64,000 nucleotides of DNA from Mobula hypostoma. Its lineage: Eukaryota. Made by a program: the position numbers and the translations under genes. Every line of letters starts with the position of its first letter. Position 1 is the first letter of the stretch. The notes beneath the pieces were generated by a model that worked only from the letters and a program-made list of their open reading frames with translations, was not told where the DNA came from and did not search any database. Below, piece after piece: positions 23,097 through 45,025 of this stretch. The stretch spans positions 10,478,001 through 10,542,000 of the forward strand of contig NC_086108.1 in the NCBI RefSeq assembly GCF_963921235.1. The letters are read 5' to 3'.

Positions 23097-23470
23097 ATGA
23101 ACATTGACTTCTCTAACTCCCCCTCGTACCCCATCCATTATTACCCATCCTCTGGGCTTCCCCCCTCCCCCTTTCTTTCTTCCCGGACCTCCTGTCCCAT
23201 GATCCTCTCATATCCCCTTTGCCAATCACCTGTCCAGCTCTTGGCTCCATCCCTCCCCCTCCTGTCTTCTCCTATCATTTTGGATCTCCCCCTCCCCCTC
23301 CAACTTTCAAATCTCTTACTAACTCTTCCTTCAGTTAGTCCTGACGAAGGGTCTCAGCCGAAATATCGACTGTACCTATTCCTATAGATGCTGTCTGGCC
23401 TGCTGCATTCACCAGCAACTTTTGTGTGTGTTGCTTGAAATTCCAGCATCTGCAGATTTCCTTGTGTTTC
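23097..23470 (+). mobile_element. Penelope 3' end with hammerhead-like motif (23336-23372)
   Basis: MNIDFSN ORF end; AGTC CTGACGA AGGGTCTCAGCC GAAA TATC GACT; close relative of 40775-41230. Confidence 0.85.
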
Positions 23471-25376: not shown

Positions 25377-27468
25377 ATAGAACATAGAACATAGAATAGT
25401 ACAGCACAGTACAGGCCCTTCGGCCCACAATGTTGTGCCGGCCCTCAAACCCTGCCTCCCATATAAGCCCCCACCTTAGATTCCTCCATATACCTGTCTA
25501 GTAGTCTCTTAAACTTCACTAGTGTATCTGCCTCCACCACTGACTCAGGCAGTGCATTCCACGCACCAACCACTCTCTGAGTAAAAAACCTTCCTCTAAT
25601 ATCCCCTTTGAACTTTCCACCCCTTACCTTAAAGCCATGTCCTCTTGTGTTGAGCAGTGGTGCCCTGGGGAAGAGGCGCTGGCTATCCACTCTATCTATT
25701 CCTCTTAATATCTTGTACACCTCTATCATGTCTCCTCATCCTCCTTCTCTCCAAAGAGTAAAGCCATAGCTCCCTTAATCTCTAATCATAATCCATACTT
25801 TCTAAACCAGGCAGCATCCTGGTAAATCTCCTCTGTACCCTTTCCAATGCTTCCACATCCTTCCTATAGTGAGGTGACCAGAACTGGACACAGTACTCCA
25901 AGTGTGGCCTAACCAGAGTTTTATAGAGCTGCATCATTACATTGCGACTCTTAAACTCTATCCCTCGACTTATGAAAGCTAACACCCCATAAGCTTTCTT
26001 AACTACCCTATCCACCTGTGAGGCAACTTTCAGGGGTCTGTGGACATGTACCCCGAGATCCCTCTGCTCCTCCACACTACTAAGTATCCTGCCATTTACT
26101 TTGTACTCTGTCTTGGAGTATATCCTTCCAAAGTGTACCACCTCACACTTCTCCGGGTTGAACTCCATCTGCCACTTCTCAGCCCACTTCTGCATCCTAT
26201 CAATGTCTCTCTGTAATCTTTGACAATCCTCTACACTATCTACAACACCACCAACCTTTGTGTCGTCTGCAAACTTGCCAACCCACCCTTCTACCCCCAC
26301 ATCCAGGTCGTTAATAAAAATCACGAAAAGTAGAGGTCCCAGAACAGATCCTTGTGGGACACCACTAGTCACAACCCTCCAATCTGAACGTACTCCCTCC
26401 ACCACCACCCTCTGCCTTCTGCAGGCAAGCCAATTCTGAATCCACCTGGCCAAACTTCCCTGGATCCCATGCCTTCTAACTTTCTGAATAAGCCTACCGT
26501 GTGGAACCTTGTCAAATGCCTTACGAAAATCCATATAGATCACATCCACTGCACTACCCTCATCTATATGCCTGGTCACCTCCTCAAAGAACTCTGTCAG
26601 GCTTGTTAGACACGATCTGCCCTTCACAAAGCCGTGCTGATTGTCCCTGATCAGATCATGATTCTCTAAACGCCTATAGATCCTATCTCTAAGAAACTTT
26701 TCCAACAGCTTTCCCACCACAGACGTAAGGCTCACTGGTCTATAATTACCCAGACTATCCCTACTACCTTTTTTGAACAAGGGAACAACATTCGCCTCCC
26801 TCCAATCCTCCGGTACCATTCCCGTGGACAACGAGGACATAAAGATCCTAGCCAGAGGCTCAGCAATCTCTTCCCTCGCCTCGTGGAGCAGCCGGGGGAA
26901 TATTCCGTCAGGCCCCAGGGACTTATCTGTCCTAATGTATTTTAACAACTCCAACACCTCCTCTCCCTTAATATCAGCATGCTCCAGAACATCAACCTCA
27001 CTCATATTGTCCTCACCATCATGAAGTTCCCTCTCATTGGTGAATACCGGAGAGAAGTATTCATTGAGGACCTCGCTCACTTCCACAGCCTCCAGGCACA
27101 TCTTCCCACCTTTATCTCTGATTGGTCCTACCTTCACTCCTGTCACCCTTTTTTTCTTCACATAATTGAAGAATGCCTTGGGGTTTTCCTTTACCCTACT
27201 CGCTAAGACCTTCTCATGCCCCCTTCTTGCTCTTCTCAGCCCCTTCTTAAGCTCCTTTCTTGCTTCCCTATATTCCTCAATAGACCCATCTGATCCTTGC
27301 TTCCTAAACCTCATGTATGCTGCCTTCTTCCTCCTGACTAGATTTTCCACCTCACTTGTCACCCATGGTTCCTTCACCCTACCATTCTTTATCTTCCTCA
27401 CCGGGACAAATTTATCCCTAACATCCCACAAGAGATCTCTAAACATCGACCACATGTCCATAGTACAT
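25377..27468 (-). mobile_element. Young 5'-truncated CR1 LINE (559-aa ORF2 RT fragment)
   Basis: ORF 25782-27461 with complete RT motifs, premature stop and frameshift near the C-terminus; (TTCTATG)n tail; TSD AGTCTC at 25371-76 and 27469-74; nested in an older CR1 (25278-28085). Confidence 0.95.
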
Positions 27469-28274
27469 AGTCTCCTCCCTTCTCCCTGTATCCCTTCATG
27501 CCCTGACCAATCAAGAATCTATCAATGTCTGCCATAAATATACCCAGTGACTTGGCCTCCACAGCCATCTGCAGCGACAAATTCCACAGATTCACCACCC
27601 TCAGGTTAAAGAAATTACTCCTCATCTTCATTCTAAGTGGACGTCTCTCTATTCCGAGTCTATGTACTCTGGTCCTAGGTTCCCCCACCTGAGGAAACAT
27701 CTTCTCCATGTTCACTCTTTCGAGGTTTTGAAAATTTGATAAGTTTCAGTGAGGTCACCTCTCATTCTTCTGAATTCCAGTGAGTAGAGACCTAGAGCAA
27801 TTAAATGCTCCTCAGATGATAAGCCTTCCAATCCCAGAATCCATTCTCGTATGTCTCCCTTGAACCCTGCCTAAAGTCAACACATCCCTTATTAGATAAG
27901 GGCCCAAAACTGCTCACAATACTGCAAGTGAGGCCTCACCAGTGCCTTATAAACCCTCAACATTATAACCTTTAGGGAATCCTGCACAAGGACTCCCAAG
28001 TCTTTTAGCATCTCTGATTTTTGGATTTTCTCTCCATTTAGAAAATAGTCTACAATTTTATGTTTTCTACCAAAGTGCACGATCGGACACCAGGCAACAG
28101 AGGATGATAGAGTCACGTAGCAGGGAACGAGACCCTTCAGCCTGTCTCGTCCATGCTAACTGTGTTGTCCAGTGAACCGATCCCATCCTACATTTAGCCC
28201 ATAGCCAACTACACCGCTCTTATCCATGGACCCATCTAGATGGTTATTAAACATTGCTAATGTGGTTGCCTCGA

Positions 28275-29027: not shown

Positions 29028-29580
29028 TTAGTCAGGCAGCATCTACGTAGAGGAATACACAGTCGACGTTTTGGTCCTTGACCCTTCATCAGGACTGGAA
29101 AGGAAGGGGGCAGAAGCCAGAATAAGAAAGTGGGGGGAGGGGTGGAAGGTGATAGGTGAGTCCAGATGAGGGGGTAAGGTGGCTGGCTGGATGTGGGAGA
29201 TGGAGATGAAGTATGAAGCTAGGAGGTGACAGGTGGAAGAGGTAAAGGGCTGAAGAAGGAATCTGATAGGAGACGAGAGTGGTCCATGGGAGAAGGGGAA
29301 GCAGAAGGAGGTGATGGGCAGGCAAAGAGAAGAGAAGGGGTCAGAGGGAAGCCGGAGAAAAAGAAAGAAGGGGGAAGAGATTATCAGCAGAGGGAGAAAT
29401 CAATATTCATGCAATCTGGTTGGAGGCAACCTATGAGGTGTTACTCCTCTAACCTGAAAGTGGCTTTATCGTGGCAGTAGAGGAGGTCATGGACTGAGAT
29501 GTTGGAATGGAAATGGGATGTCGAATTATGATAGGTGGCCACCGGGGAATCCCACCTTTTCTCGGAAGGAGCATAGGCTC
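29028..29580 (-). mobile_element. Penelope 3' fragment with decayed hammerhead (29060-29097)
   Basis: DSPVATYHNSTSH..LYCHDKATFRLEE (post-GIY-YIG tail) plus terminal motif. Confidence 0.8.
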
Positions 29581-39735: not shown

Positions 39736-40141
39736 TATCGCACTTGCACTGCCCCAACATGGACATCATTGCCTGCTTCTGCCTGAGCCCTGAACTCGAG
39801 ACCTCCCTCCCCAAATAGCTGCATTTCTCTGTTGCTCTTTTACACACTCCTACGAGTGAACTTTGTGTCCCTGAACTCTGGACTTTCCTTCTGAACTGCT
39901 ACGTGTCTCTCTACTCTTCGGGTGAAGCTTGCCCACTTGTGTTTCCCGTGACAGTGTGTGCTTGATCAGCCCAGGGATGGTGGTGGGCCGTAGTTTATCC
40001 ATCCTGATCGTTACTGCTGTTCTACACTGTATCAACAACTTCCGGAGGGCAGCAGAAATCCCTGGAACTGGGATGGTCTTTGGGGAAAGGCCACTGGAGG
40101 GACGCACATGACTGAGGCAGAAGGAGCCATCCTCTCTATAT

Positions 40142-40761
40142 TACAACGGGTTAACAGTAACAGAATAGAGGAACGTATCAGGCCAGTGGAGGGGAGTGAT
40201 ATTCAATTAAATGCCTGCAAGGTGAGTCTGTGGGCTGAAATTGAAGGATTTTTCACACCACAGCGTAGACTGGGATCTGATGAAGAATCACTTCACAGCT
40301 GATATAACATTGAATTAAATCCACATAAATGCCACTAAATTGCAGCCTGAGAGAGATTTGAACCTTCAGAGCACACCAAGAATAGAAATATATTTCCGTT
40401 GTAATTCTGTTAAGTTCTAATGGGCAACAGGGATGCAAACACATATTTCAAGTTGCTGCATGCTTTGAGCTGCATGACTGCGTTGATATTTTGACCAGAG
40501 GCTTTCAGTACCTCAAACGGCCTAGCCAAAACTCTGGTTAGGCCACACTGGGAGTCTGGCCTACTGTTCTGGTCGCCCCACCGTAGGAAGGATGTTGAGG
40601 CTTTGGAGCGAGTACAGAAGAGGATTACCAGGATGCCGGTATTTGAAATGCTTAATTGGATATTTCTGCCCACAGATTCACCTTGCAGGTATTTAATTGG
40701 ATATGACTCCCCTCCACTGGCCTGCTGCGTTCCTCCATCCTGTTACTTTTAACTCTTTGTA
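40142..40761. repeat. 100-bp inverted repeat (40142-40241 / 40662-40761)
   Basis: Ungapped reverse-complement match with ~12 mismatches by manual alignment; spacer contains a CR1 scrap (40527-40635). Confidence 0.85.
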
Positions 40762-40774
40762 GGATATATAAACC

Positions 40775-41460
40775 TTAACAACAGGAATTCTGCAGATGCT
40801 GGAAATTCAAGCAACACACATCAAAGTTGCTGGTGAACGCAGCAGGCCAGGCAGCATCTCTAGGAAGAGGTACAGTCGACGTTTCAGGCCGAGACCCTTC
40901 GTCAGGACTAACTGAAGGAAGAGTGAGTAAGGGATTTGAAAGTTGGAGGGGGAGGGGGAGATCCAAAATGATAGGAGAAGACAGGAGGGGGAGGGATGGA
41001 GCCGAGAGCTGGACAGGTGATAGGCAAAAGGGATACAAGAGGATCATGGGACAGGAGGTCCGGGAAGAAAGACGGGGGGGGGGACCCAGAGGAAGGGCAA
41101 GGGGTATATTCAGAGGGACAGAGGGAGAAAAAGGAGAGTGAGAGAAAGAATGTGTGTATAAAAATAAGTAACAGATGGGGTACGAGGGGGAGGTGGGGCA
41201 TTAACGGAAGTTAGAGAAGTCGATGTTCATGCTATCAGGTTGGAGGCTACCCAGTCGGAATATAAGGTGTTGTTCCTCCAACCTGAGTGTGGCTTCATCT
41301 TTACAGTAGAGGAGGCCGTGGATAGACATGTCAGAATGGGAATGGGATGTGGAATTAAAATGTGTGGCCACTGGGAGATCCTGCTTTCTCTGGCGGACAG
41401 AGCGTAGATGTTCAGCAAAGCGGTCTCCCAGTCTGCGTCGGGTCTCACCAATATATACCA
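40775..41460 (-). mobile_element. Young Penelope-like element 3' part (GIY-YIG C-terminal half and terminal repeat)
   Basis: Minus frame YIGETRRRLGDRFAEHLRSVRQRKQDLPVATHFNS...LEEQHLIFRLGSLQPDSMNIDFSNFR*. Confidence 0.9.
40873..40910 (-). ncRNA. Minimal type I hammerhead ribozyme motif
   Basis: UAGUC-CUGACGA-AGG(GUCUCGG)CCU-GAAAC-GUC/GACUG: complete core, stems I and II, palindromic ACGU stem III. Confidence 0.75.
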
Positions 41461-41464
41461 GGGT

Positions 41465-42007
41465 TTCAATTCTACTTCCTGTTCCCGTTTCAACATGTCA
41501 GTCCTTGACCTCCTCTACTGCTGCAATCAGGCTTAATTCAGGTTGGAAGGGCAACACCTTATATTCTTTCCATCTTGGTAGTCTCCAACCTGATGGCATG
41601 AAATTTGATTTCTTGAACTTCTGGTATTTGCACCCTCTTACTCCATTCCCCATTCCTGCTGGCTGCTCATACCTTACCTCCTTACCTGCCCATCACCTCT
41701 CTCTGGTGCTCCTCCCTTTTCCCTTTATCCATGGTTTTCTACCCCTTCCTATCAGGTTCCCCCTTCACCAACCCTTTATCTCTTTCTCCGATTAACTTCC
41801 CAGCTCTTTACTTCAACCCCTCCCCCCTCCTGGTTTCGCCTCTCACCTGTCACCTTGTCCTTCTTCCTCTCCTCCCCTTACCTTCTTGCTGTGACTTCTT
41901 ATTGCTTCCAGTCCCGATGAAGGGTCTTGACCCGAAACATCAACTGTTTACTCTTTTCCATAAATGCCTCCCGGACTGCTGAGCTCCTCCAGCACTTTGT
42001 GTGTATT
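41465..42007 (+). mobile_element. Older Penelope 3' fragment, head-to-head with the previous copy
   Basis: LGSLQPDGMKFDFLNF; decayed hammerhead at 41909-41946. Confidence 0.8.
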
Positions 42008-42805
42008 ATTTCCCAGGATGCTGCCCCGTTTGGAGGGCATATGCTGTGATGAGAGGCTGGTTAAACTTGGGTTGTTTTCTCTGGAGTGGCAGCTGCTGAG
42101 GAGAGATCTGATAGAGGTTTACAAGATTAGGAGAGGCAAAGATAGATGTGGCCAAGTGGCTAAGGCATCGGTCTAGTGATCTGAAGGTCGCTAGTTCAAG
42201 CCCCAGCTGAGGCTGCGTGTTGTGTCCTTGAGCAAGGCACTTCACCACACATTGCTCTGCGACGACACCGGTGCCAAGCTGTATTGGCCCTAGTGCCCTT
42301 CCCTTGGACAACATCGGTGGCGTGGAGAGGGAAGACTTGTAGCATGGGCAACTGCCGGTCTTCCATACAACCTTGCCCAGGCCTGCGCCCTGGAAACCTT
42401 CCAAGGCGCAAATCCATGGTCTCACGAGACTGGCGGATGCCTAAAAAATGTTAGAGTAGACAGGGAGTATCTGTTTCCCAGGGTAGAAAAGTCGAATACC
42501 AGAAGGCATGCATTGAAGGCGAGAGGGGGCTGTAGGTTCAAGGGGGATGTGAGGGGTAAGTTTTTCACTCAGAGAATAGTGGATGCCTGGAATGCGCTGC
42601 TTGGTATGGTGGTAGAGGCAAATATATTAGAGGCTTTTAAGAGATGAACACTTAGATCTGAGGATGATGGTGGGATATGGATATTGTGTTGGTAGGAGGG
42701 ATTAATGTTCGGGTGTTTTTGATTGCTCTTTAGTTGGTTTGGAACAACATTGTGGGCCGAATGGCCTGTTCCTGTGCCGTACAGGTCCATGTTCTGTGTC
42801 TATGT
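42008..42805 (+). mobile_element. CR1 3' end split by a tRNA SINE
   Basis: RMLPRLEG..LGLFSLE..DLIEVYKI, resumes AGAGTAGACAGG at ~42453. Confidence 0.85.
42147..42450 (+). mobile_element. tRNA-derived SINE (CORE-like centre)
   Basis: A box TGGCCAAGTGG, B box GTTCAAGCC, GTGTCCTTGAGCAAGGCACTT; copies at 59010 and 60647. Confidence 0.85.
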
Positions 42806-44129: not shown

Positions 44130-44260
44130 AGCACAAGAGATTCTGCAGACACTGGAAATCCAGAGCAACTCACACAAAATGCTGGAGGACTGGGCAGGTC
44201 AGGCAGCGTCTATGGAGAGGAATAAACTGTTGACGTTTTCGGCTGAGACCCTTTTTCATC
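44130..44260 (-). mobile_element. Penelope terminal fragment
   Basis: TCTGCAGACACTGGAAATCC..GCTGGAGGA..GACGTTTTCGGCTGAGACCC. Confidence 0.75.
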
Positions 44261-44262
44261 AC

Positions 44263-45025
44263 CAAATTCAAAGTTCAAATTTCAAAGTACATTTATTATC
44301 AAAGTACGTATACATTATACAACCTTGAGATTCGTCTCTTTACAGGCAGCCATGAAATAAAGAAACCCCAAAAGAACTCATAAAAAAGACTGTCAAACAC
44401 CCAATGAGCAGAGAGTAAAAAAAAACAAATTGTGTAAACAATAAAAGTAAGCAAATAGCATTCCAGACAAAGGTGAGTTCATGATGTGAAGCCAGGATCG
44501 ATCAGCGGGAGCAGGCCACAGCTTCAGCTCAGTTCAGTCAGGGTCGAGTAAATGTTGTGGAGCAGTGAGCAGATCTGACCTGACCCTCACCTCTGGTCCC
44601 GACACCCTGCTTTGTCAATCCATCCGGCCTGGCGTTTAAATCATCCAAATGTTGAGTCATTCCTCACGAGGACCCAGGCCGTGTCACATCAATATGCTCT
44701 GGGCTGGATCCCGCCAGTATGTTCCAGCCCGTACCCGACCTTTCCAAATCGGCCTGAGGCTTAGACTGATCGAACCTCGCTTGCCGTTCGGGTGAATCTG
44801 CCTCTCCTCTGCTCTGCTCTCCCCGACTTTGCCTCAATTATGTCTTGACTTTGCCTCGCACCCATACGTTCTGACCCTCAACTCAGCCTCGCCTTTGCTC
44901 ACCTCTCAATTTTCTGCGGTGATCATTTACCAGAAAAAGTGTTATTAATAAAGCATTTAGTTGTATTCTTTGTCTTGCTTGCTGCCAGTAAGTAGTCCCT
45001 GGGCTTCACCAGTGCCATCTTAAAC
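44263..45025 (-). mobile_element. ~760-bp non-coding retroposon with AAGATGGC 5' end and Rex1-type tail
   Basis: GCCATCTT at 45014-21; minus-strand end GAATCTCAAGGTTGTAT..TTTGATAATAAATGTACTTTGAAATTTGAACTTTGAA matches the tail at 295-362. Confidence 0.65.

Follow-up and report, generated by a model that had tools for sequence, protein, structure and literature searches.

The window analysed here, a stretch of 64,000 nucleotides from Mobula hypostoma, carries a minimal type I hammerhead motif (min-HHR) on its minus strand. Very probably it is the min-HHR of a very abundant, probably Neptune-type Penelope-like element (PLE) family that was passively copied into a recent 5′-truncated insertion, where it rests as an idle passenger. 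Both the motif class and its genomic setting have already been published, and the window copy is ordinary in kind.

Re-reading of the window sequence from 40910 to 40873 on the minus strand gave UAGUC CUGACGA AGG-GUCUCGG-CCU GAAAC GUC^GACUG. The core CUGANGA / GAAA / UH is complete. In standard hammerhead numbering, which provides the labels C3–A9, G12–A15.1 and C17, the GAAA (G12–A15.1) occupies 40885–40882, the ACGU palindrome 40882–40879 and C17 position 40878. Cleavage is predicted 3′ of C17, between 40878 and 40877. Stem I (UAGUC/GACUG) consists of five pairs, four of the Watson-Crick type and an outer U-G. Loop III is absent, and the palindromic 15.1–16.1 stretch ACGU, which is the dimer-formation criterion of PLE min-HHRs, is present. 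An extra nucleotide, A40898, separates A9 from G10.1, and the 10.1–11.1 pair is G-U in place of the usual G-C, which is highly conserved but not invariant. The preliminary description had given the same letters with a complete core, the same stem I and the loopless ACGU palindrome as stem III, and all of this agreed with our reading. Its term "intact" holds for the core letters but overstates the case for the motif, whose conserved G10.1-C11.1 pair is G-U here. Coordinates of the features are compiled in Table 1.

Table 1. Features of the Penelope-like element copy and its neighbour in the window.
Feature	Position	Strand	Evidence
5′-truncated copy of a Penelope-like element (tail of the nuclease, 3′ UTR, hammerhead, pseudo-LTR end), ~675 nt	40783..41457	-	contig depth
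GIY-YIG endonuclease C-terminal part (YIGET..RF.EH..H..E..N) and stop; begins at the YIG motif, without RT	41201..41457	-	
Pyrimidine-rich 3′ UTR; last 20 nt can pair with hammerhead CUGACGAAGG in the predicted lowest-energy fold	40911..41200	-	
Minimal type I hammerhead motif (min-HHR)	40873..40910	-	sequence, descriptor match, relatives' alignment, covariance model
Core C3–A9, CUGACGA	40899..40905	-	sequence
Bulged A (40898) and 4-bp stem II GGGU/GCCU with CUCG loop; first pair G10.1-U11.1	40886..40898	-	relatives, folding
GAAA, C17 and the loopless ACGU palindrome, which forms stem III only in a dimer	40878..40885	-	sequence; architecture as in passages of PMC4209133
Pseudo-LTR end and tail region, where 3′ ends of the family cluster beside A/T-rich flanks	40783..40872	-	
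Older, decayed Penelope-like end, ~64% identical overall, not a partner in cis	41464..42007	+	

A stem II of three base pairs, AGG/CCU, had been proposed in the preliminary description. This register was rejected because its first pair holds in only four of 20 rows of distant relatives. With A40898 bulged, the first pair holds in all 20 rows (16 G-C, four G-U), and folding of the isolated motif gave pair probabilities of 0.87–0.97 for this register and 0.02 for AGG/CCU. Stem II, according to the relatives and the folding, has 4 bp (GGGU/GCCU) and is preceded by a bulged A. Hallmarks named in passages of PMC4209133 include the extra nucleotide (A9/G10.1) and the G10.1-C11.1 pair. Position 40886, read on the RNA strand, is C in 36% (run X1), 31% (X3) and 26% (X9) of the family contig depth, shares that are biased towards the window copy by an 88% likeness filter, and among the variable sites listed it is the only one within the motif. 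A G-U pair at 10.1–11.1 would probably lower the cleavage rate. Passages of PMC544870 and PMC2837043 give no rate for G-U at this position.

When the window was searched with a min-HHR descriptor comprising the core, at least three stem II pairs and at least three stem I pairs, the motif at 40873–40910 was the single match. Sixty Markov-1 simulated 64-kb sequences contained a mean of 0.033 loose matches, and a strict match occurred in none of the 60. Furthermore, a covariance model built from 12 distant relatives, with no window sequence included, ranked 40873–40910 first in the window (30.6 bits, with a rough E of ~7.5e-6). A chance resemblance without ribozyme ancestry would be compatible with three other results. 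There is no enrichment of the bare pattern CTGANGA..GAAA (11 occurrences in the window at a shuffled mean of 7.25, with 12 of 100 shuffles reaching 11), the fold of the isolated motif is unremarkable (z −1.24), and Rfam produced no hammerhead match in the window, neither at the gathering score nor at E≤10. With 0.03 descriptor matches expected, the top rank in the covariance model, a core downstream of the nuclease in relatives and a position within the element that agrees with published PLE hammerheads, chance is nevertheless practically negligible as an explanation, and position-specific conservation together with compensatory pairing among distant relatives, described below, already refutes it. 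Judged by its sequence, 40873–40910 is a genuine min-HHR and no chance match. The model search named as a check in the preliminary description came out in favour of the motif with the descriptor and the covariance model, but not with Rfam.

A metagenome scan with the nuclease alignment yielded 44 loci at 34–61% identity, and in nine of them a descriptor match in sense orientation follows closely downstream of the nuclease match. A core-only search, which allowed two mismatches and used a pattern derived from these descriptor matches, was applied to the 300 nt downstream of the nuclease match. Of the 32 loci with room for it, 22 contained a core there, and none of the 32 did so in antisense orientation. 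These 22 loci correspond to 20 distinct rows from about five families, for which the stems were not used for selection and which hold few independent compensatory events. The inner three pairs of stem I held in 53 of 60 cells (18, 18 and 17 of 20 rows; types A-U, C-G and U-A), compared with a shuffled mean of 39.5 and none of 5000 shuffles reaching 53, and the outer two pairs held in 10 and 11 of 20 rows. In alignment A2, 91% of the cells pair and seven of nine pairs change on both sides, while slid controls reached at most 50.5%; this result is partly circular, since the 14 rows of A2 were selected with the descriptor, which requires stems. C3, U4, G5, A6, G8 and A9 are invariant in A2, whose rows were chosen for a complete core. 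Taken by these alignments, core letters and covarying stems are retained across families at ~50% endonuclease identity. These counts, along with the first pair of stem II holding in all 20 rows, bear out among relatives the core conservation and covariation asked for in the preliminary description.

In five relative loci, the strand opposite to the nuclease match bears a hammerhead upstream of it (L002 267–305, L015 1582–1620, L017 1485–1523, L020 2138–2176 and L021 548–586, all on the minus strand), as expected for inverted pseudo-LTR arrangements of PLEs.

The endonuclease frame upstream of the motif is open over 84 codons (41455–41204), starts with YIGET and is closed by TAA at 41203–41201. 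The distance from the stop codon is 291 nt to the start of the motif and 323 nt to the cut site. Contigs of three runs aligned to 40400–42200 revealed a 5′ break at 41457, beyond which the family sequence continues into upstream nuclease codons. The 3′ end of the copy lies at ~40783–40777, and loose contig ends cluster at 41457 and 40777/40783. Between the 40766 and 41437 bins, contig depth climbs from ~10 to >1e6. The copy is truncated and has neither the RT, nor the linker, nor the first half of the nuclease motif, and it keeps the YIG half and two His residues. The preliminary wording of an "uninterrupted" GIY-YIG terminus is correct for the open frame of 84 codons but not for the domain, which is cut at 41457. 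At the element flanks we found no target-site duplication, and direct repeats were limited to short TA runs. None of the contigs listed reaches across a junction between element and flank.

A protein search provided 51 relatives among 103 candidates. The closest were annotated ray proteins with 94% (Mobula hypostoma) and 88% (Hypanus sabinus) identity. The aligned relatives, including these two, exhibit RT motifs, a CX4CX2C linker, CxxC and a GIY-YIG domain, in line with an EN+ PLE, where the RT precedes a C-terminal GIY-YIG endonuclease with a CCHH motif, and a CX2-5CxxC linker between RT and EN was seen in P0001-P0004, P0006, P0017, P0020 and P0043 (alignment A1). In Pfam, the longer relatives matched PF01541 and RVT_1 weakly, and the nuclease fragment alone had no match. 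Passages of PMC8557442 describe such an RT-EN linker as a mark of the Neptune and Nematis clades. Because its relatives carry this linker, the host element is probably a Neptune-type PLE, an assignment made from the linker of relatives and from a feature that Neptune and Nematis share. The layout of the motif and the relatives with RT and GIY-YIG support the earlier identification as a Penelope-like element's minimal type I hammerhead. Neither viral nor metagenome contigs contained a locus with exact DNA patterns taken from the sequence downstream of the motif, and of 38 candidates from a protein search in viral contigs none was confirmed.

In runs X1 and X3, contig depth summed to ~10 for the unique flanks but reached 2e6–1.8e7 across most of the element, a measure that is no copy number and indicates only a very abundant family. 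At least six sites of the element (41004, 41037, 41094, 41204, 41233 and 41255) read another letter in at least 80% of the X1 depth. Among the variable sites listed, the copy differs from the family majority at ~1% of the copy, which fits a young copy, as had been stated in the preliminary description. Family depth was highest over the hammerhead and tail bins (40783–40887), ~3–4x that of the ORF end, with loose ends at 40777 and 40783. This depth peak and the clustered ends suggest many short terminus-only copies with preferred 3′ ends.

About half of the window consists of self-similar repeat sequence. Nine hammerhead-length termini are present, four of them with all core letters (40.9k, 23.3k, 35.8k and 59.5k), and among these four only the copy at 40.9k retains both stems and the palindrome. 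Many of the differences among the window termini are CG to TG/CA changes. The sister copy at 23335–23373 (+), which is 91% identical over 329 nt, has all core letters and AUAU instead of ACGU, so that its stem III palindrome survives a double change; one stem II base is lost. In the plus-strand neighbour of the element, the hammerhead at 41910–41947 shows a U4→C exchange and a broken palindrome. With only ~64% identity between the two, this neighbour is not taken to be an inverted half belonging to one insertion with the element. The nearest same-strand look-alikes are located 3.3 kb upstream (44226–44265), where the core is destroyed, and 11.8 kb downstream (29059–29098), where G12 is changed to A. 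No intact same-strand partner hammerhead exists within the 64-kb window, and no second same-strand unit was found in 39900–42200.

Other repeats surround the element. A 105-nt inverted repeat (40137–40241 / 40662–40766; 87% complementary, arms 420 nt apart) adjoins its 3′ end; the covered arm has single-copy depth, and a high-depth repeat fragment lies between the arms at ~40522–40643. An open frame of 578 codons at 25782–27518 (-) matches RVT_1 with an E of 3.5e-35 and is probably a LINE fragment. A tRNA-like sequence at 42149–42207 (+), which scored 22.1 bits and stayed below the Rfam gathering score, lies in a high-depth region and is probably the head of a tRNA-derived SINE. The second weak Rfam match in the window is a chance miRNA match.

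Folding predictions bear on the prospects of cleavage. In the natural context, pair probabilities of stem I and stem II did not exceed 0.02. In the monomer, GACG of the core pairs with CGUC, and in the natural context the upstream pyrimidine tract pairs with the core. The active dimer was calculated at −11.5 kcal/mol and the inactive duplex at −30.3 kcal/mol. A low stem I probability (≤0.19) was likewise obtained for all ten of ten relatives. As the energy model omits tertiary contacts and the ten relatives behave alike, these energies point to a need for help and not to a dead window copy. The pyrimidine tract at 40906–40925 (-) can pair with GAAGG, which spans core and stem II, and a similar pairing of an upstream tract is apparent in some distant relatives (L005, L016). 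This pairing could be either an off-state hairpin or a by-product of composition.

Passages of PMC4209133 report no cleavage for one min-HHR alone and weak cleavage for dimers and trimers. For the Anolis Poseidon hammerhead, parts of PMC11167929 describe cleavage that requires the protein of its element. Cleavage at the window locus is unlikely, because no intact same-strand partner lies within 64 kb, because predicted folding favours other structures and because the minimal PLE hammerheads in the literature depend on dimer formation or on the protein of the element. The window sequence may cleave weakly as a dimer construct.

Min-HHRs in the pseudo-LTRs of metazoan PLEs were described in 2014 by Cervera and De la Peña (PMC4209133), whose supplement contains many 5′-truncated PLEs with a single 3′ hammerhead as well as a Neptune min-HHR of Acropora digitifera. 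According to these parts of the study, the window motif shares with them type I architecture, the missing loop III, the palindromic 15.2/16.2, the extra A9/G10.1 nucleotide, a short stem I, the location at the 3′ end of 5′-truncated copies and the predominance of solo motifs, and the Acropora motif has the same layout. In contrast to the G-C pair reported there, the window copy has G-U at 10.1–11.1, its host is a ray-like cartilaginous fish, and its family seems to exceed by far the abundance given in those passages, thousands of motifs per genome. The portion of the supplement text that was searched does not contain the words "shark", "Callorhinchus" or "Leucoraja".

A second comparison is provided by the Poseidon element of Anolis carolinensis (PAc) with its protein-assisted hammerhead (Frangieh et al. 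2024, PMC11167929). As far as the passages of this paper describe it, PAc resembles the window copy in having a pseudo-LTR hammerhead downstream of a C-terminal GIY-YIG ORF, and it resembles the window family in 3′ ends ~95–100 nt past the cut site, beside A/T-rich flanks. Unlike PAc, the relatives of the window element have a Cys-rich linker of the Neptune/Nematis type by the criterion in passages of PMC8557442, and no PAc-like ORF start was identified in the window element. Non-LTR retrozymes, which carry a type I hammerhead of PLE origin, are the subject of a preprint (bioRxiv 10.64898/2026.07.22.740005), passages of which report PLE-derived hammerhead repeats in its one sampled chondrichthyan genome. 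They are described there as non-coding units in tandem, whose consecutive repeats each contain a hammerhead, whereas the window holds a single motif on a nuclease-coding fragment. The identity as a non-LTR retrozyme was rejected on account of the single motif, with no second same-strand unit nearby and none intact in the window. Our literature search returned no work joining ribozymes, Penelope and cartilaginous fish and none on PLE hammerheads of rays. The ray family may be undescribed by name; supplements of the preprint could name species and motifs.

Two further readings concern function. It is improbable that the solo copy is cleaved in trans in vivo by pairing with family RNA, with or without protein, so that a host or read-through transcript would be cut at 40878/40877. 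All core letters and an intact ACGU palindrome would permit it, the family is abundant and present in the contigs of a putative RNA run, deepest over the hammerhead and tail bins, and a related hammerhead is switched on by its element's protein (passages of PMC11167929). Contigs of that single run, which is only guessed to be RNA, leave the unique flanks at depth 0. A scan of 149 of the 169 non-repeat ORFs of at least 55 aa, in which short exons would escape notice, detected no host exon. Moreover, a trans dimer would be held together by three short helices and is outcompeted by other folds in the energy model, and according to passages of PMC11167929 the Anolis cut site has no RNA-seq reads ending at it.

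Somewhat less improbable, although still doubtful, is a family motif that no longer cleaves and is retained or inherited, either for a structural or protein-binding role in the pseudo-LTR or by hitch-hiking, with G10.1-U11.1 of the amplified subfamily reflecting relaxed selection on catalysis. U is found at 11.1 in about two thirds of the family depth, but this share is biased by the likeness filter mentioned above, and G-U at 10.1–11.1, which also occurs in four of 20 distant rows, may be tolerated. Core mutants of the Anolis hammerhead insert as well as the wild type in vitro (passages of PMC11167929), and Naiads proliferate without canonical hammerheads (passages of PMC8557442). The retention of core and covarying stems across families speaks against a loss of catalysis.

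Under the preferred reading of a passively copied, idle motif, an active family master would carry the min-HHR in its pseudo-LTR, from which it would have been copied passively into the recent 5′-truncated insertion. In full-length tandem elements, as the literature leads us to infer, two motifs on one transcript would exchange strands, their ACGU palindromes would form a 4-bp stem III and, with the element's protein helping, the RNA would be cut 3′ of C17 (40878/40877). The window copy would be a solo passenger that is probably not cleaved in vivo, because it has neither a same-strand partner nor an RT.

A far-reaching alternative, which we regard as a long shot, is that the very numerous young core-complete solo hammerheads of a ray genome are activated in trans by protein or family RNAs and cut host transcripts. 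If so, host pre-mRNAs and non-coding transcripts would be cut at many sites, and the two amplified variants (G-C and G-U at 10.1–11.1) would be a ready-made comparison for the role of catalysis in transposition. The single copy matters little, given that most genomic copies of PLE min-HHRs are solo fragments. The function of PLE hammerheads is called unclear in passages of PMC8557442, and the motif is dispensable for insertion in vitro according to parts of PMC11167929. The window copy adds nothing beyond its family, and it is this young, abundant family with two natural stem II variants that is convenient material for studying their function in vivo.
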